In this document: in pieces, positions 13,046-20,502 of the stretch
How positions within the stretch are numbered: position 1 is the first letter of the stretch
Layout: each line of letters opens with the position of its first letter
Origin: Candidatus Fervidifonticultor secundus
Lineage (GTDB): Bacteria; Sysuimicrobiota; Sysuimicrobiia; Sysuimicrobiales; Humicultoraceae
Assembly: GCA_031459385.1 (NCBI GenBank)
Contig: JAVKIP010000003.1
Span: forward strand, 133,192-197,191
DNA: 64,000 nucleotides
Reading direction: 5' to 3'
Translations under genes and position numbers: made by a program
The notes under the pieces: model-generated
Seen by the model: the letters and a program-made list of their open reading frames with translations, nothing else
Database searches by the model: none
What the model was told of the DNA's origin: nothing

Positions 13046-13475
13046 CCGCCCGCGCGCCCGCCGCGCCAGCGGCGGGTTCACCCTGATCGAGGTCGTCGTC
13101 GCCATGGCCGTGCTCTCCCTGGTGGCCACCACCGCGCTGGGCGGGCTGCTGTTCACCATGACCCAGACCCGGCGCGGCTTCGACCGGGCCCAGGCCGCGG
13201 CATGGGTCCAGGCCGAGCTGGACTTCCTGCGCACCATGGGGTACGGGCTGGCGCCGGGGACGCGCACTGTGCCCACTGACGGCTATCTGGCCAACAGCGA
13301 CCTGCAGGAACCGCGGATTCCCGACGGGTTCGACCGGGCCGAGATCGTCGTCGAGGACCTCACCGGCAGCCTGGGCATTCCCCTGAAGTCCATGACGGTG
13401 CGCCTGTACCAGACGCCGACCTCCCCGCCCTACACGATCCTCGTCACGTATGTGGCGAACTTCGACTACCCGTGA
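13038..13475 (+). CDS. Cassette 4 PilV/GspI-like minor pilin
   Basis: SGG|FTLIEVVVAM; AAAWVQAELDFLR. Confidence 0.85.
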   Translation: MADRPRARRASGGFTLIEVVVAMAVLSLVATTALGGLLFTMTQTRRGFDRAQAAAWVQAELDFLRTMGYGLAPGTRTVPTDGYLANSDLQEPRIPDGFDRAEIVVEDLTGSLGIPLKSMTVRLYQTPTSPPYTILVTYVANFDYP

Positions 13476-14185
13476 GCGGACCAGCGATGCGCCGGCCTGG
13501 GGCAGCACGGCACGGACAGGCGGGGATCTCCCTCGTCGAGGTCATGGTGGCCATGGTCATCATGACGGTCGTCATCGGGACGATCGCGACGCTGGTGGGC
13601 GCGTCGGTCCGCAGCAAGATGATCGTGGCCAGCCGGTCCTCCGACACGGAGACGGCACGCCAGACGCTGGAGATGATGTCCGAGCGGCTGCGCAACGCGG
13701 GGCTGAACATCGACCCTGCGGCCCAGCCCGACCGCTGCGACGACATGGTCGTGGCCAAGGACCCGGCCCTGCGGCCGACGGCGACCCAGCTCTACGTGGC
13801 CGGCGAGATCTTCAACTCGAACACGACCGCGGGCGACCAGGTGATCGTGCTGGGCTACCGGCTCACCGGCGGCCGGATCGTCGAGGACCGCAGCGCGTGC
13901 GGCGTATGGGCTCCGACGACCAGCGATGTCTCGAACCCCGGGATCACGGTGACGAGCCTGCTCTTCCGGTACTTCGGCTCAAGCGGCGGCGAGATCACCG
14001 TACCCACAACCGACGAGGAGGCGATCCGGAGCATCCGCGTGGTGCAGATCAGCCTCACGGTCCGGGCCGAGGAGGGACGGTCGGGCGCCCAGATCCAGCG
14101 CTTCAGCCGGCAGGTGATGCTGCGCAACCCCCGGCCGGACCGCAGTGGCTGGCTGCCGCCGGCCGGATGGGAGACGAATCCATGA
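13472..14185 (+). CDS. Cassette 4 PilW/GspJ-like minor pilin
   Basis: QAG|ISLVEVMVAM; ARQTLEMMSERLRNAG; QVMLRN. Confidence 0.85.
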   Translation: MSGPAMRRPGAARHGQAGISLVEVMVAMVIMTVVIGTIATLVGASVRSKMIVASRSSDTETARQTLEMMSERLRNAGLNIDPAAQPDRCDDMVVAKDPALRPTATQLYVAGEIFNSNTTAGDQVIVLGYRLTGGRIVEDRSACGVWAPTTSDVSNPGITVTSLLFRYFGSSGGEITVPTTDEEAIRSIRVVQISLTVRAEEGRSGAQIQRFSRQVMLRNPRPDRSGWLPPAGWETNP

Positions 14186-15591
14186 AAAGAGGCACGATGC
14201 GGCCCGCCGGCGCCGGGCGCCTGCGCCGCACGCCGGCGGGCGGCCAGGCTGGCGCGGCGCTGCTCTCGGTGGTGCTCTTCCTGCTGCTGATCCTGATGGT
14301 CACGGTGGGTGTCATGGCGGTGGTCCGCAGCGACCTGGCGGCCGGCATCCGCCAGCAGCAGGCCGTGCAGGTCTTCAACGTGGCGGAGGCGGGCGTGCAC
14401 TACGCCATCGCGCGCCTGCAGACCTCTGGGGCGAACCGGTACGACGGGGCCACGGTCCCCATCACCGACGGCAGCACCACCATCGGGACCGCCACCATCC
14501 AGGTCCGCTGCCTGGACGGCACCCTCCCGAGCGCCAGCGCCTGCAACGGTGCCGAGCCGGCCTACCGGCGGATCGCCTCCACCGGAACGCTCACGGTGGC
14601 AGGACCCCGTCGGGTGGTGACGGCGGTGGTCGAGGGCACGACCTCAGTGACACGGACCTACGCGGTGTGCGCCTACGACGCCCTGACCCTCGACCAGCAG
14701 GTGACGGTCTACGGGTCGGTGGGCACCAACGGCATTATGACGCTCAGCGGGCCCAACAACCTCAACCGTGCGGCGATCTGCGACTCCACCCCGGGCGGGC
14801 TGGGCGGCCGGTGCGGCACGCCCAATCCCGCACCCGCCAGCTCGTTCACGGCCGGCGCCTCCGCCGTGGGGACCATCACGTGCAACGGGGGCGGCTGTGC
14901 CAACCAGGTGGAAGGGCCGACGACACCCAACCAGCCGGCCGGGTCGGTATGCCCGACGGTCACGCTCCCGGGCTGGGGGCCCCCGGGCACCACGCCCCTG
15001 TCGGTGCCCCTCGGCAGCACGGTGTTCGCCAACCCCGCCACCAACTACGGCTCCGTGACGCTGGCGGATACGCCCGGCAACCCCAACCCCTGCCCGTCGG
15101 ACCCCGCGCAGCGCGCCACGCTGGTGCTGGACGCGGGCAGCGACCCCACCGCGACGGTCACGTTCCAGATGGCCACGCTGTCGGTCGGCAAGTGCGCCCG
15201 CGTCGAGATCCGCGGGCAGGGGAAGGTCGAACTGCGGTTGCTCGCGCCGACCACCACGGCGCTGCGCACCGTCCAGCGCTCGGTCCTGGGGACCACCTCG
15301 CAGACCGTCGGCAGCGAGGTGGCCGTGGAGGGCCACCGGTTCACGGTCAAGGTGGTGTCCACCCACTCGACCGCCGCCGTCGACTTCAACCAGTCGGGCT
15401 TGATCGCCGGCACGTTCATCGTGCCCAACGGCGGGTTCCACCTGGACCAGGCACAGATCACCAACGGCGCGATCCTGGCGAGGGCCGTCGACTTCGACCA
15501 GGGCACCACCTTCACGTGGGACCCGCGGTCGATCATCGGCGACCAGGTCTACGGCGACTTTCGCCGGCTGCGAGCCTGGAAGGACCAGTAG
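14182..15591 (+). CDS. Cassette 4 large PilX/GspK/ComZ-like minor pilin
   Basis: QAG|AALLSVVL; QVFNVAEAGVHYAIARL; C-terminal RLRAWKDQ; ATGA overlap. Confidence 0.85.
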   Translation: MKRGTMRPAGAGRLRRTPAGGQAGAALLSVVLFLLLILMVTVGVMAVVRSDLAAGIRQQQAVQVFNVAEAGVHYAIARLQTSGANRYDGATVPITDGSTTIGTATIQVRCLDGTLPSASACNGAEPAYRRIASTGTLTVAGPRRVVTAVVEGTTSVTRTYAVCAYDALTLDQQVTVYGSVGTNGIMTLSGPNNLNRAAICDSTPGGLGGRCGTPNPAPASSFTAGASAVGTITCNGGGCANQVEGPTTPNQPAGSVCPTVTLPGWGPPGTTPLSVPLGSTVFANPATNYGSVTLADTPGNPNPCPSDPAQRATLVLDAGSDPTATVTFQMATLSVGKCARVEIRGQGKVELRLLAPTTTALRTVQRSVLGTTSQTVGSEVAVEGHRFTVKVVSTHSTAAVDFNQSGLIAGTFIVPNGGFHLDQAQITNGAILARAVDFDQGTTFTWDPRSIIGDQVYGDFRRLRAWKDQ

Positions 15592-15639
15592 GCGCCCGAG
15601 AGGGGCCCGGCGCACACGCCGGGTGACGCCGCGCCCGCG

Positions 15640-16251
15640 TCACCCGGCGTTGTGTTTGTCGCCGGTCCCGCGTCCTGTGCCCCGAGGCGAAGGAGAGCGC
15701 CGCGCGCTATCGACAGCCGTTGTGGCGGGCGGCGATCCGGATCGGATGGGTCGCAGACGGCCCGTCGCGAACCGCTCCCGCGCTTCCGCTACTAGCCGCC
15801 AGGCCTCGGGGGCCGGAGCCCAGCCGTAGATCTCGACCGCCTTCTCCTCCAGGGTCTTGTACACGGTGAAGAAGTGCTCGACCTCTTTCAGGAAGTGGGG
15901 CGGCACGCCGTTCAGGTCGGTGACGTCCGCAAAGCGCGGGTCACCCACGGGCACCGCCAGGATCTTCTGGTCGACGCCCTTCTCGTCCCGCATGTTCAGG
16001 ACGCCGATGGGTCGTACCTCGACCAGGCACCCCGGGAACGTTGGCTCGTAGGTGAAAATCAGGACGTCCAGGTGGTCGCCGTCCTCCGCCAGGGTCTCCT
16101 CAATGAACCCGTAGTCGGCCGGGTAGTGCAGCGGCGAGTAGAGCACGCGGTCCAGGCGCAGCCGGCTGGCGGCGGCATCCCATTCGTACTTGTTGCGGCT
16201 GCCTCGCGCGATCTCCACCAACGCCCAGACGGTAGGCCCGGGCCGCGACAT
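15640..16251 (-). CDS. ppa: Family I inorganic pyrophosphatase
   Basis: VEIARGSRNKYE, LDRVLYSPLHYPADYG, DGDHLDV, HFFTVYKTLE motifs. Confidence 0.95.
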   Translation of the reverse strand: MSRPGPTVWALVEIARGSRNKYEWDAAASRLRLDRVLYSPLHYPADYGFIEETLAEDGDHLDVLIFTYEPTFPGCLVEVRPIGVLNMRDEKGVDQKILAVPVGDPRFADVTDLNGVPPHFLKEVEHFFTVYKTLEEKAVEIYGWAPAPEAWRLVAEARERFATGRLRPIRSGSPPATTAVDSARRSPSPRGTGRGTGDKHNAG

Positions 16252-16253
16252 GC

Positions 16254-16664
16254 TCACCCTCTCGCCTCCTCCACCGCGGCCAGGGTCTGGGCCAGCGCGG
16301 CCACCCGACGCCCCAGCTCGTCGCGGACCGCGCGGTAGCCCTCGAGCCCGCCGCCAGCGGGGTTGGGCAGCGGCCAGTGCTCGCTGCGTACGCCCGGCAC
16401 CACCGGGCAGGCCTCCTCCGCGCACAGCCCCACGATCAGGGCCACGTCGGGGCCCAGCGCCGCCTCCAGGGCCACGGGCCGATGCTGGCTGATGTCGAGG
16501 CCGACCTCGCGCATCGCCTCCACCGCTTCCGGACGCACGCGCTCGCCGGGTTCCGTGCCCGCGGAACCCGCCCGCCAGCCAGCCGGCGCCACCGCGTTGA
16601 ACAGCGCGGCGGCCATCGGCGAGCGGGCGGTGTTGTGATGTCAGACGAACAGGACGCGCGGCAT
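16254..16664 (-). CDS. arsC: Thioredoxin-type arsenate reductase / LMW-PTP family protein with an in-frame TGA (putative Sec) at the catalytic Cys
   Basis: MPRVLFV-TGA-HHNTARSPMA matches the VLFVC-x5-R P-loop; SAGTEP, GLDIS, LCAEEACP and HWPLPNP downstream in the same frame. Confidence 0.8.
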
Positions 16665-16670
16665 GGCTCC

Positions 16671-16679
16671 AGGATACCA
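16671..16679 (-). promoter_or_regulatory. Extended -10 (TGG-TATCCT) 6 nt before the arsC ATG: leaderless promoter
   Basis: Same TGG-TANNNT-N6-ATG layout as at argS. Confidence 0.5.
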
Positions 16680-16767
16680 CAGGCCCGCGGCTACGCCCCG
16701 CCCGGCCGCACGGTGACACGGTGACAGGGACGCCCGGAGGGCCTAGCATCGAGGTGGAGGGGGTGCG

Positions 16768-17529
16768 ATGCTGCTCGCGCTGGACATCGGCAACACCAAC
16801 GTCAAGCTCGGGGCATTCCGAGGATCGGAGCTACTGGCGACCTGGCGGGTCGCGACCGATGCGCGGCGGACGCCGGATGAGTACGCGGCGCTGGTGGCAG
16901 CGCTGCTGGGCATGCGTGGGATGACCCCGGCGCGGGTGGAGCGGGTGGTGCTGTGCAGTGTCGTGCCGCCGCTCACCGCAGTGTTTCGCGAGGTTGCGCG
17001 CGACGTGTTTGGCGCGGTCCCGCTGGTCGTCGGCGAGAACGTCGAGACCGGGCTGCGCGTGCTCTACGACCCGCCCTCCGACGTCGGGGCCGACCGGCTG
17101 GTGGCGTCGACCGCGGCCTACCGGCGCCTGGGCGGACCGGTGATCGTGGTGGAGTTCGGAACCGCCACGGTGTTCGACGCGGTCTCGGATGCCGGCGAGT
17201 ACCTCGGCGGCGCCATCCACCCTGGCCTCCAGCTGGCGGCTGAGGCCCTGTTCACGGGCACCTCCCAGCTTCGTCGCATCGAGCTGCGTCGGCCGGCGGC
17301 GGCCATCGGCCGCACGACAATTGCCGCGATCCAGTCCGGGGTGGTGCTGGGACACGTCGGCATGGTCGAGGGCATGGTTGCGCGGTTCCGGCGCGAGGTG
17401 GGCGAGCGCGCCCAGGTGGTGGCCACGGGCGGGCTCGCGCGGCTGATCGCCGCAGAGACGCCCGTCTTCGCTGCCGTCGACGAGGACCTGATCCTGCACG
17501 GCCTGCGGCTCATCGCCGAGGCCACCTGA
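16768..17529 (+). CDS. coaX: Type III pantothenate kinase
   Basis: LALDIGNTNVK, VGADR, EFGTATVFD, YLGGAIHPG. Confidence 0.95.
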   Translation: MLLALDIGNTNVKLGAFRGSELLATWRVATDARRTPDEYAALVAALLGMRGMTPARVERVVLCSVVPPLTAVFREVARDVFGAVPLVVGENVETGLRVLYDPPSDVGADRLVASTAAYRRLGGPVIVVEFGTATVFDAVSDAGEYLGGAIHPGLQLAAEALFTGTSQLRRIELRRPAAAIGRTTIAAIQSGVVLGHVGMVEGMVARFRREVGERAQVVATGGLARLIAAETPVFAAVDEDLILHGLRLIAEAT

Positions 17530-17567: not shown

Positions 17568-18791
17568 ATGCCCACGGTGCTCCACGGCAAACACATCGTC
17601 CTGGGGGTCACGGGCAGCATCGCGGCTTTCAAAGCCGCCGACCTGGCGAGCAAGCTCACGCAGCACGGCGCAGCTGTGGACGTAGTGCTCACGCCGGACG
17701 CCGCCCGGTTCGTCACGCCGCTCACGTTCCAGGCCCTGACCCATCGCCCGGTCACCACCGACCTCTTCGACCCGCGGGCCGCGATCGCCATGGATCACGT
17801 GGCCCTGGCGCAGCGGGCCGACGTCATCGTCGTCTGCCCGGCGACGGCGCACACGCTGGCACGGCTGGCGCTGGGCCTGGCCGATGACGCGCTGGCGGCC
17901 ACGGTGCTGGCTTCGCGCGCGCCGCTGGTGGTGGTTCCGGCGATGGACGCCCAGATGTTCGACCACCCGGCGGTGCAGGAGCACGTGGCGCGGCTGCACG
18001 CGCGGGGCGCCCGCATCGTCGGCCCCATGGAGGGTCGGCTCGCCTCGGGGCTGGTTGGCCGCGGGCGCATGGCCGAGGTTCCGGAGGTGCTGGGCCACCT
18101 GCGCGCGGTGCTCGGCGCGGCGACCGGGGACCTGCGGGGTACGACGATCGTGGTGACCGCAGGCGGCACGCGAGAGCCGCTGGACCCCGTGCGGGTGCTG
18201 ACCAACCGGTCGTCGGGCAAGATGGGCTACGCGGTGGCCGAGGCGGCCAGGGATCGCGGGGCGCGCGCGATCCTGATCACCGCGCCGACGGCGCTCCCCG
18301 ACCCGCCGGGCGTGGACGTCCGACGGGTGGAGACCGCCCTGGAGATGCGGGAGGCCGTCCTGGCGGCCTGCCGCGATGCCGACGCCCTGGTCATGACCGC
18401 GGCGGTGGCCGACTACCGCCCCGCGGCACCGGCCCCGCAGAAGGTGAAGAAGGGCGCGCCCACCTGGACCGTCGAGCTCGTGGAGACCCCCGACATCCTC
18501 ACCGAGGCCGGCGCGGCCGCGCCGGCGCTGGTCCGGGTGGGCTTTGCCGCCGAGACGACGGACCTGGTGGCGGCCGCCCGCGCCAAACTGGTGCGCAAGG
18601 GGCTCGACCTGATCGCCGCCAACGACGTCTCGGCAGCCGGCAGTGGGTTCGGCGCCGACACGAACCGCCTGGTCCTCATCGATCGCGAGGGGCGGGTCGA
18701 GGACCTGCCCGTGCTCCCCAAGTTCGACGCCGCCTGGATCCTCCTGGACCGCGTCAGGGCCCTGCTGGCGTCTGGGTGGACGCGCCCCTAG
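17568..18791 (+). CDS. coaBC: Bifunctional phosphopantothenoylcysteine decarboxylase/ligase
   Basis: GVTGSIAAFKA, PATAH, PAMD, TAGGTREPLDPVR, NRSSGKMG. Confidence 0.95.
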   Translation: MPTVLHGKHIVLGVTGSIAAFKAADLASKLTQHGAAVDVVLTPDAARFVTPLTFQALTHRPVTTDLFDPRAAIAMDHVALAQRADVIVVCPATAHTLARLALGLADDALAATVLASRAPLVVVPAMDAQMFDHPAVQEHVARLHARGARIVGPMEGRLASGLVGRGRMAEVPEVLGHLRAVLGAATGDLRGTTIVVTAGGTREPLDPVRVLTNRSSGKMGYAVAEAARDRGARAILITAPTALPDPPGVDVRRVETALEMREAVLAACRDADALVMTAAVADYRPAAPAPQKVKKGAPTWTVELVETPDILTEAGAAAPALVRVGFAAETTDLVAAARAKLVRKGLDLIAANDVSAAGSGFGADTNRLVLIDREGRVEDLPVLPKFDAAWILLDRVRALLASGWTRP

Positions 18792-18850
18792 CAGGGAACC
18801 GCCCGCGGCGATGGAATGCACACGTAGCCAGACCCAGGAGGACTCCCGGC

Positions 18851-19468
18851 ATGGCGTTGCGCCTGCTCCCCCGCGAGGAGATCTTCTTCGAGCTGTTCAA
18901 CCAGGCGGCCGACAACGTGCTCGAAGCCGCCCGCAAGCTGCAGGAACTGCTGGACGACTACAGGGACGTCGAGTCCCGTGCGGCCGCGATCAAGGCCCTG
19001 GAGGACCGCGGCGACGAGCTCACCCACACCATCATCGACCGGCTCAACCGCACCTTCGTGGCGCCGCTGGACCGTGAGGACATCTTCGCGCTGGCCAAGC
19101 AGCTGGACGACGTCCTGGACTGGATCGAGGCCTCATCGGCGCGCATGGCCATCTACCACATCGCGCGCGCCACGCCCGAGGCCCGCGAGCTGGGCCACAT
19201 CATCGCCAGCGCCTGCCAGGCCATCGTCGAGGCGATCCGCGATCTCCGCCGGCTCGACCGGGTCGGCGCCACGCTCCGCGAGATCAACCGGCTCGAGAAC
19301 CTGGCCGACCATGTGCAGCGCGATGCCATCGCCAAACTGTTCGCCGCCGGCGGCGACCCCATCGAGATCATCAAGTGGAAAGAGGTCTACGAAACGCTGG
19401 AAGAGGCCACCGACCAGGCCGAGCATGTCGCGCACCTGCTCGAGGGCATGCAGGCCAAGCATCTCTAG
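18851..19468 (+). CDS. DUF47 / PhoU-like Pit accessory protein
   Basis: FFELF, EDRGDELTH, FVAPLDREDI, IIKWKEVYETLE; directly upstream of a Pit transporter. Confidence 0.9.
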   Translation: MALRLLPREEIFFELFNQAADNVLEAARKLQELLDDYRDVESRAAAIKALEDRGDELTHTIIDRLNRTFVAPLDREDIFALAKQLDDVLDWIEASSARMAIYHIARATPEARELGHIIASACQAIVEAIRDLRRLDRVGATLREINRLENLADHVQRDAIAKLFAAGGDPIEIIKWKEVYETLEEATDQAEHVAHLLEGMQAKHL

Positions 19469-19506
19469 GAGGCGCCGCTGGCTGGCCGGCCGTCCCCCCC
19501 TCGCTG

Positions 19507-20502
19507 ATGCCGACCGTCCTCCCCCTGGGGTTGCTGCCCGTCCTGGTGCTGGTGCTGGCCGCCGAGTTCGTCAACGGGTGGACCGACGCGCCCAACGCCA
19601 TCGCCACGGTGGTCTCCACCCGGGTCCTGACGCCGTCAGTGGCGGTCGTCGTCGCCACGGTCCTCAACGTGGTCGGCGTGATGTCGGGCACCGCCGTGGC
19701 CGCCACCATCGGCACGGGGATCGTGCGGGCCGACGTCATCGACCCGGTCACCATCGCGGCGGCCATGACGGCCATCGTCATCTGGAGCACGCTGGCATGG
19801 CTGCGCGGGCTGCCGACCAGCGAGAGCCACGCGCTGGTCGCCTCGCTGGCCGGCGCCGGCCTGGCCACCGCCGGGCCCGCCGCCCTGCTGTGGGACGGCT
19901 GGCGCAAGGTGCTGCTCGGCCTGGGCTTCTCGACCCTGCTGGGCTTCGCCGGCGGCTTCCTGTTGATGCTCACGATCAGCTGGCTGTTCCGGCGCACGCC
20001 GCTGGGAGCGGTCCGCCGGCTGTTCGGGCGGCTGCAGATCCTGTCGGCAGGCTTCATGGCCTTCAGCCACGGCAGCAACGACGGGCAGAAGTTCATGGGG
20101 GTCTTCGTCCTGACGCTGGTGCTGGGGGGTGTGCTGCCGGAGTTCCGGATCCCCTTCTGGGTGATCGTGCTGTGCGCGCTGACCATGGGGCTGGGCACGG
20201 CCCTCGGGGGCTGGCGCATCGTGCACACCATGGGCATGCGGCTGACCAAGCTGGAGCCCTTCCAGGGCTTCTCCGCCGAAACGGCGGCCGCCACGGCCAT
20301 CGAGGCGGCCAGCCGGCTGGGCATTCCGGTCAGCACGACCCACACGATCAACACCGCCATCATGGGGGTCGGGGCGACCCGCCGCCTGTCCGCGGTGCGC
20401 TGGGGCGTGGGTCTGGAGATTGTGACCGCGTGGATCCTCACGTTTCCGGTCTGCGCGCTCGTGGCCGCCGTGGTCGCGCGGTGCCTGCGGGCCGTGTTCT
20501 GA
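19507..20502 (+). CDS. pit: Inorganic phosphate transporter (PiT family)
   Basis: NGWTDAPNAIAT, LPTSESHAL, HGSNDGQK, GIPVSTTH signature motifs. Confidence 0.9.
   Translation: MPTVLPLGLLPVLVLVLAAEFVNGWTDAPNAIATVVSTRVLTPSVAVVVATVLNVVGVMSGTAVAATIGTGIVRADVIDPVTIAAAMTAIVIWSTLAWLRGLPTSESHALVASLAGAGLATAGPAALLWDGWRKVLLGLGFSTLLGFAGGFLLMLTISWLFRRTPLGAVRRLFGRLQILSAGFMAFSHGSNDGQKFMGVFVLTLVLGGVLPEFRIPFWVIVLCALTMGLGTALGGWRIVHTMGMRLTKLEPFQGFSAETAAATAIEAASRLGIPVSTTHTINTAIMGVGATRRLSAVRWGVGLEIVTAWILTFPVCALVAAVVARCLRAVF

Follow-up and report, generated by a model that had tools for sequence, protein, structure and literature searches.

A conserved in-frame UGA points to a selenocysteine form of the LMW-PTP-fold arsenate reductase family encoded beside phosphate genes in Candidatus Fervidifonticultor secundus

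A stop codon placed exactly where an enzyme family carries its catalytic cysteine raises the question of whether the gene is broken or the codon is read as selenocysteine (Sec, U), and, if the latter, which reaction the selenoenzyme serves. Such a codon is found on the minus strand of a 64,000-nt stretch of Candidatus Fervidifonticultor secundus (JAVKIP010000003.1; hereafter the window, to which all coordinates without a contig name refer). From position 16664 the minus strand reads ATG CCG CGC GTC CTG TTC GTC TGA CAT CAC AAC ACC GCC CGC TCG, and when the TGA is read as U a protein of 136 residues is obtained (MPRVLFVUHHNTARS...LCAEEACP...HWPLPNPAG...), which ends at a TGA stop at 16256-16254. 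An initial annotation, made from the letters alone, had proposed this frame, with UGA at the nucleophile position of the C-X5-R-S phosphate-binding loop (P-loop) and with both later cysteines retained, and our sequence, translation and alignment analyses agree with it on each of these counts: the 136 codons are open, and C81 and C86 are encoded by TGC (16424-16422 and 16409-16407, respectively). Asn101 is encoded by AAC (16364-16362). As it had also pointed out, the list of open reading frames (ORFs) omits the N-terminus, the listed ORF (16254..16616, 120 aa) starting from Met17. In the following we argue that this is very probably a real selenoprotein gene whose UGA is recoded as Sec, with selenium incorporation itself being what we infer from the sequences, and that the best explanation, which we hold with good confidence, is a Sec member of the low-molecular-weight protein tyrosine phosphatase (LMW-PTP)-fold, thioredoxin-type ArsC family, acting as an arsenate reductase linked to phosphate uptake.

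The conservation of the codon was analyzed in two sets of genomes. In the first one, which comprised 61 related genomes, 26 (the genome of the window, G000, included) have an orthologue at 59-86 % identity, and TGA occupies the codon 8 position in all 26, within the motif [start]-x2-V-L-F-[VL]-U-x-x-N-[ST]-A-R-S. The second set covered 94 genomes of the phylum, and 39 of them gave matches at a threshold of E <= 1e-35. A single in-frame TGA was present in 42/42 of the matches that cover the N-terminus (identity 56-86 %), and its position was verified codon by codon in each of the 39 genomes; a 43rd match begins at residue 23. Genome G019 (locus L029) is counted here, and without it the counts are 25/25 and 41/41, whereas G010 was counted only in the tallies of the Sec machinery given below. 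The loop itself varies among the Sec orthologues, with U-RGNSM-RS and U-VGNRA-RS as variants. Close homologues thus carry TGA throughout, rather than TGC or TGT, and Cys is found in distant or nested ones, so that the TGA/Cys pairing of a selenoprotein family is observed. The four distant homologues (L048-L051; 36-47 % identical) all have TGT or TGC at this position, and Cys also occupies it in P0020 and P0016, two full-length proteins from the databases. A maximum-likelihood tree (34 rows, rooted at the midpoint only) places both of them within the Sec clade, which has a support of 95/88, and joins P0016 to L030/L032 (97/88); this nesting fits occasional replacement of Sec by Cys.

Could the TGA nevertheless be a true stop, so that the product starts at Met17 or the gene is a pseudogene or a sequencing error? 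Gene callers and public databases annotate exactly the Met17 form, as this explanation would have it. According to the structural model, however, strand beta1 and the whole P-loop would be missing from such a product, and TGA is retained in 42/42 matches although identity at the protein level falls to 56 %. Furthermore, the distance from the start (ATG or GTG) to the UGA is always 7 codons, and the codons in between vary synonymously (GTC/GTG/GTT, CTG/CTC/CTT/CTA and TTC/TTT), which indicates that the stretch before the TGA is under coding selection. The same TGA is present, with 0 differences, in four assemblies, a single contig each, made from four hot-spring runs that belong to one study, and two of these runs may be the source of this DNA, and the structure that follows the UGA is itself under selection (see below). 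Hence, a true stop is very unlikely. A reassignment of TGA in this lineage to one of the standard amino acids, or its read-through as one of them (Trp, Gly or Cys), is slightly less probable still. When selenium is scarce, UGA can be read as Cys or Trp by near-cognate decoding, yet nothing specific was found in favour of this explanation here. TGA terminates the gene itself, 2 nt before the start of the next one, as well as 22/26 of the Sec orthologues, and therefore it is not generally reassigned; in addition, the UGA sits exactly where the homologues have their catalytic Cys, and a complete Sec machinery is present.

The latter was established in G000, the genome that contains the window as its contig C23 (3.3 Mb, 97.6 % complete, with a contamination estimate of 5.5 %). 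It encodes a tRNA-Sec (64.5 bits with the Rfam model; called SeC, anticodon tca, by ARAGORN) together with selA (465 bits), selB (368 bits) and a Sec-type selD (388 bits), all above the family cut-offs, with selB and selA clustered on contig C12. The four components whose absence would have spoken for a nonsense mutation are thus all present in the own genome. Among the relatives, SelA was found in 51/61 and tRNA-Sec in 52/61 genomes. Since the Sec trait is nearly universal in the order, a cross-tabulation of the machinery against the TGA form does not discriminate, and it was dropped as uninformative. Two further observations concern the machinery as such. The own selD (G000:C1:104038-104961, minus) is also a selenoprotein gene, with an in-frame TGA (..ACAG-U-ASKL..) and a candidate loop, CGUGC, of a selenocysteine insertion sequence (SECIS) at +33 to +37 after the UGA, a spacing similar to that of the loop in the arsC-like gene. 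In G037, SelA consists of two overlapping pieces (G037:C4:42326-43325) and a tRNA-Sec was not found, although that genome is 100 % complete, so the Sec trait may be decaying there.

In bacteria, Sec is inserted with the aid of a SECIS hairpin immediately 3' of the UGA, and we therefore analyzed the region downstream of the codon. The initial annotation had proposed a hairpin, GCCGCCGCG-CUGUUCAA-CGCGGUGGC, with a possible lower stem; the former turned out to be the apical part of the minimum-free-energy fold, and the latter was found as well, beginning at +11 to +14. This fold reaches -32.2 kcal/mol (z -1.81), and 7/200 dinucleotide shuffles were as stable. Long hairpins centred on a UUCAA loop are formed by most Sec orthologues and not by the Cys homologues. 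A more stringent comparison was made with a null in which the peptide was kept and synonymous codons were redrawn from G000 usage (63 nt, +12 to +75). The Sec forms are more stable than this null (mean z -2.59; 22/26 in the lower 5 % tail), whereas the Cys forms are close to it (mean z -0.46; 1/4 in that tail). A RIBOSUM-scored consensus structure, counted over 38 distinct Sec rows after a wrong-frame match in L077 had been left out, is paired in 84.5 % of the cells, as against 27.4 % in the four Cys rows, and when its 3' partners are slid by 1-4 nt pairing falls to 36.7-57.6 %. In 7/21 of the consensus pairs changes have occurred on both sides, i.e., they are compensatory. These results indicated that selection acts on the RNA fold 3' of the UGA, and the hairpin that starts about 11 nt after the codon probably acts as a SECIS element.

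Several points weigh against that assignment. At about 37 nt from the UGA, the start of the loop is distant in comparison with the published SECIS model. The consensus was derived from the same, related sequences on which pairing was counted, the default RNAalifold consensus is weak (-5.1 kcal/mol, 11 pairs), and the codon usage of the null was taken from G000 alone. Furthermore, a G at position 2 of the apical loop is present in 23/38 of the distinct rows, with C in 14 and A in 1; the own gene has the G (CUGUUCAA), which according to one report (PMC1088965) is typical of the small apical loop of bacterial SECIS elements. A shorter rival hairpin (cols 14-18/30-34) pairs in 76 % of the cells, one spurious row included, and may be part of an alternative fold. 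A structure typed by hand was discarded, because it was out of register (50 % paired, rising to 75 % with a slide of +2). A scan of 15500-17000 with Rfam gave nothing beyond two sub-threshold matches to miRNA models.

To which family, then, does the protein belong? Its sole Pfam match is LMWPc (PF01451; 5.8e-20, 72 bits against a cut-off of 23). Among solved structures, the nearest one by sequence is the ArsC of Archaeoglobus fulgidus (1Y1L, E 2.2e-20), followed by Staphylococcus aureus pI258 ArsC (about 1e-18) and Bacillus subtilis ArsC, whereas the YwlE/LMW-PTP phosphatases score about 1e-8, some 10 orders of magnitude weaker. An AlphaFold2 model built from a 34-row alignment reached a predicted local distance difference test score (pLDDT) of 95.3 and superimposes on ArsC structures with template modelling (TM) scores of 0.82-0.89. 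When the Protein Data Bank (PDB) was searched by fold, all 19 rows listed through rank 23 were arsenate reductases, with TM scores to the query of 0.73-0.83, and a phosphatase appeared for the first time at rank 24. The P-loop is U8-HHNTA-R14-S15, in which Sec replaces the Cys of C-X5-R-(S/T). In the HMMER alignment to 1LJL/1LJU, the counterparts of U8, C81 and C86 are Cys10, Cys82 and Cys89 of pI258 ArsC, and the motif GLCxEE[AG]CP, and with it both cysteines, is kept in 26/26 Sec orthologues. The features of an LMW protein tyrosine or arginine phosphatase are lacking: the general-acid Asp is replaced by Asn101, and the closest relatives are ArsC proteins. The proposal of a Sec-containing LMW-PTP-fold ArsC made in the initial annotation is thus supported by the fold, by the conserved TGA and by the Sec machinery. 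The gene is the only PF01451 gene of the own genome, apart from a copy on contig C33. That 'second copy' was rejected as a paralogue, because the stretch that holds it, G000:C33:1-3305, matches contig G031:C35 from another genus at 100 % identity over 3,305 nt and carries the Sec-ArsC and the ppa (inorganic pyrophosphatase) gene of that organism. C33 is hence a shared or mis-binned contig, consistent with the contamination estimate of 5.5 %.

The closest known systems resemble this protein in different ways. The A. fulgidus ArsC, a structural genomics target, shares 43 % identity (TM 0.89, root-mean-square deviation 1.7 A), an x-H-N-T-A-R-S P-loop, a C-x4-C pair and 'NP' instead of 'DP', but it is archaeal and has a Cys nucleophile where a UGA-encoded Sec is found here. 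The pI258 ArsC (1LJL, 1JF8) and the B. subtilis ArsC (1JL3) share the fold, the C-X5-R-S loop and two downstream cysteines; they differ in that here the nucleophile is Sec, the cysteines are spaced by x4 and not x6, Asn stands in place of Asp105, no ars operon is present and the score lies below the NCBIfam equivalog cut-off. Enzymes of the pI258 type are said, in work attributed to Messens et al. in 2002, to operate by a three-step cascade, from which the mechanism that we propose is taken. SelB and Sec-tRNA(Sec) would decode the UGA at codon 8. By analogy with pI258 ArsC, the oxyanion loop U-X5-R-S would hold the selenolate of U8, which would attack arsenate; attack by C81 would then form a Se-S bond with release of arsenite, C86 would resolve this bond to give a C81-C86 disulfide, and thioredoxin would reduce the latter. 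Coupling to thioredoxin, and regulation, are likewise what we infer. The enzyme could in this way clear the arsenate that enters through the phosphate transporters, and the arsenite formed could pass to methylation by ArsM or leave through a major intrinsic protein (MIP) channel. As the substrate, arsenate is somewhat favoured.

The neighbourhood of the gene was then considered (Table 1). A gap of 2 nt separates the stop of the Sec gene from the start of ppa, and the two are therefore probably co-transcribed as one operon. Flanking genes were surveyed at 26 loci, about 1.5 kb on each side where the contig allows, and these loci are kin. Immediately downstream, and on the same strand, ppa is present at 14/26 loci; pstB-phoU lies upstream on the same strand at L028, L029 and L031, while phoU-pstB is convergent at L030; and a DUF47-PiT pair is directly divergent from the Sec gene at L038, L042, L043 and L047. 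In this manner a phosphate-metabolism gene flanks the Sec gene at 22/26 loci, in three different arrangements. Since arsenate enters cells through Pit and Pst, this linkage would be explained, and the ppa operon together with the Pst/PhoU or DUF47/PiT adjacency in relatives led us to read the protein as a phosphate-uptake-linked arsenate reductase. Methyltransferases dependent on S-adenosylmethionine next to the gene at L038, L045 and L047 were rejected as ArsM, since they score far below the cut-offs.

Table 1. Features in and around the Sec gene (window coordinates)
Feature	Position	Strand	Details
Selenoprotein gene (putative), LMW-PTP-fold ArsC-like	16254..16664	-	136 codons + stop; U8, R14, S15, C81, C86, N101
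In-frame UGA, predicted Sec codon (codon 8, P-loop nucleophile)	16641..16643	-	TGA conserved; Cys in distant/nested homologues
Start codon ATG	16662..16664	-	orthologue start (ATG or GTG) always 7 codons before UGA
GGAG (16670-16667) and TGgTATCCT (16679-16671)	16667..16679	-	possible Shine-Dalgarno sequence and/or extended -10; sequence match only
C81-x4-C86 pair, LCAEEACP	16407..16424	-	aligned with resolving Cys82/Cys89 of pI258 ArsC
SECIS-like long imperfect hairpin (candidate)	16566..16630	-	+11 to +75 after UGA; apical loop CUGUUCAA at 16597-16604
Inorganic pyrophosphatase gene ppa	15640..16251	-	Pfam Pyrophosphatase 8.4e-54; starts 2 nt after Sec-gene stop
coaX	16768-17529		between Sec gene and DUF47/PiT
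coaBC	17568-18791		between Sec gene and DUF47/PiT
DUF47 (PhoU_div) + PiT/PHO4 phosphate permease	18776..20502	+	Pfam; 2.1 kb from Sec gene

The phosphate linkage can also be read in another way, namely that the gene encodes a genuine selenoprotein that acts in phosphate homeostasis on a substrate other than arsenate, for example a different tetrahedral oxyanion or a phosphorylated compound; Sec and the Cys pair would then be used for redox or transfer chemistry of another kind. We regard this as unlikely. The observations in its favour, and other points that weigh against an arsenate reductase, are gathered here. The linkage itself (ppa at 14 loci, pstB-phoU at 4 and DUF47-PiT at 4) fits such a role, and an ars operon context (arsR, acr3/arsB) was found at none of the 26 Sec-gene loci. 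Acr3, ArsB and an ArsC/Spx protein of PF03960 were not found in the own, 97.6 %-complete genome, of which the Sec gene is also the sole LMWPc-family gene. Among the 61 relatives, Acr3 exceeds its cut-off in 10, only 6 of which are among the 26 Sec-form genomes, and ArsB was found in 0/61. The ArsC genes of the same order that do adjoin Acr3 (G009:C90:9875-11367 and G006:C241:5180-6147) are Cys paralogues. Furthermore, the protein scores well below the NCBIfam ArsC equivalog cut-offs (arsC_pI258, TIGR02691, 68.3 bits vs 174.3; NF010053, 74.9 bits vs 215), and the equivalent of Asp105 is Asn101, with N, D, S or G among the orthologues and N in 1Y1L. The same variation bears on the rival, however, because phosphatases need the general-acid Asp for turnover and it is not conserved in this clade. 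It is also opposed by the finding that every close solved relative is an arsenate reductase, true phosphatases scoring far lower, and by the invariance in the Sec clade of the redox pair equivalent to Cys82/Cys89. In addition, arsenate entry via Pit and Pst accounts for the phosphate linkage, and ArsM (268.7 bits vs a 263-bit cut-off) and a MIP channel, both present in the own genome, could serve as outlets for arsenite. An arsenate reductase coupled to phosphate uptake therefore remains our preferred explanation.

A further reading, which we put forward tentatively and think somewhat doubtful, is that the Sec clade is a distinct selenoenzyme coupled to phosphate uptake, a 'proof-reader' of the oxyanions that phosphate transporters let in, and not a detoxification enzyme of the ars-operon type. 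Its substrate would be arsenate or possibly one not yet considered, the clade would be co-inherited with ppa, Pst/PhoU or DUF47/PiT, and Sec would have been selected because a selenolate is active with substrate at trace levels or at high temperature, conditions under which a Cys enzyme would be too slow. If true, this would define a new functional class among LMW-PTP-fold proteins; it would also be the first selenoenzyme from nature to use a P-loop (C-X5-R) nucleophile.

Some details of these loci and of the arsenic genes deserve mention in their own right. In G009 and G006 the Acr3-ArsC pair has the canonical ars arrangement, with an ArsC of the LMW-PTP Cys type, and the Sec gene of G009 follows pstB-phoU on a contig other than C90. 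The own genome has a Cys-type ArsM gene above the cut-off at C16:29747-30403, and an ArsM-like gene at G000:C56:125513-126108 carries an in-frame TGA in W-A-G-U-L-S-G, the known UxxG type of Sec-ArsM; since the N-terminal half of the latter is out of frame with its C-terminal half, it reflects a frameshift, an assembly error or a pseudogene. Upstream of the Sec gene, the initial annotation had called an extended -10 element. The motif TGgTATCCT is present and ends 6 nt before the ATG, as stated, but it is kept only in the two genomes of the same genus; in other genera the start is preceded instead by purine runs that resemble GGAG/GAGG. A promoter scan of the minus strand found no sigma-70-type site, so the element stands as a sequence match only. 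Between ppa and a large, convergent, pilin-like ORF (13450-15591, +) lies a 14-bp GC-rich terminator-like hairpin (15616-15650). The listed ORFs of DUF47 (18776-19468) and PiT (19375-20502) overlap by 94 nt, and the true PiT start is probably further downstream than listed.

We finally compared the protein with the selenoproteins already described. The published Sec 'arsenate reductases' (Sargasso Sea, 2005, PMC1088965; Global Ocean Sampling, GOS, 2008, PMC2398784; Table 1 of a 2026 review, PMC13188914) belong to COG1393/pfam03960/TIGR00014 (UxxS) and to cd03032/NF041106 (UxxC). They share with the present protein the substitution of Sec for the catalytic Cys, and were likewise predicted by Sec/Cys pairing and a SECIS-like hairpin, but their Spx/glutaredoxin-like fold is unrelated to the LMW-PTP fold and the U-x5-R loop found here; no match of our protein to TIGR00014 or NF041106 was obtained at E <= 0.01. 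Haruna et al. (2014, NAR; PMC4150793) engineered an LMW-PTP-fold ArsC with Sec, the U89 form of B. subtilis ArsC; it is an artificial reporter for mass spectrometry, with Sec encoded by UAG in place of the resolving Cys89. In our protein, Sec would be natural, encoded by UGA and at the nucleophile position. Sec-ArsM (NF008823, UxxG), listed as experimentally verified in the 2026 review, is likewise a selenoenzyme of an arsenic pathway, and the U-L-S-G candidate mentioned above is found in the own genome, but it is another enzyme with another fold and acts on arsenite, the product of ArsC. Table 1 of that review (May 2026) lists 119 selenoprotein families or subfamilies, PF01451 not being among them, and neither its main text nor that of the BSepDB paper contains the words 'phosphatase', 'tyrosine', 'LMW' or 'PF01451'; the supplements of either could still list the family. 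A full-text literature search found no natural Sec-containing LMW-PTP or ArsC of the LMW-PTP fold, and release 20 of NCBIfam has no selenoprotein model that matches the protein. The Sec form of LMW-PTP-fold ArsC thus appears to be uncatalogued, i.e., a new Sec variant of a known enzyme family.

A search of a collection of 5.8 billion proteins gave matches to 1,015 clusters (E <= 1e-10). Of these, the best 120 are mostly 113-128 aa long and cover 82-88 % of the query; nearly all of them have their start at Met17 (MAEGLFN) or at a GTG directly behind the TGA, and they are named 'arsenate reductase ArsC' or 'protein-tyrosine-phosphatase'. An exhaustive search of representatives returned N-terminally shortened ones again. 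Hence, these shortened entries have no catalytic loop. The best-scoring representatives of the 50 % clustering (P0123-P0125 and P0128; 281-460 aa) contain two matched stretches and are tandem or fused Cys-type LMW-PTP ArsC domains.

These results would add to the 119 families of the 2026 inventory a selenoprotein family with a fold and an active-site type, the P-loop U-X5-R nucleophile, that lie outside it, and they expose a systematic annotation error in public databases. The Cys forms nested in the Sec clade make up a natural Sec/Cys pair, which would permit a test of the benefit of selenium in arsenate chemistry. Furthermore, the linkage to phosphate genes suggests how hot-spring bacteria that have neither Acr3 nor ArsB may handle the arsenate that their phosphate transporters bring in.

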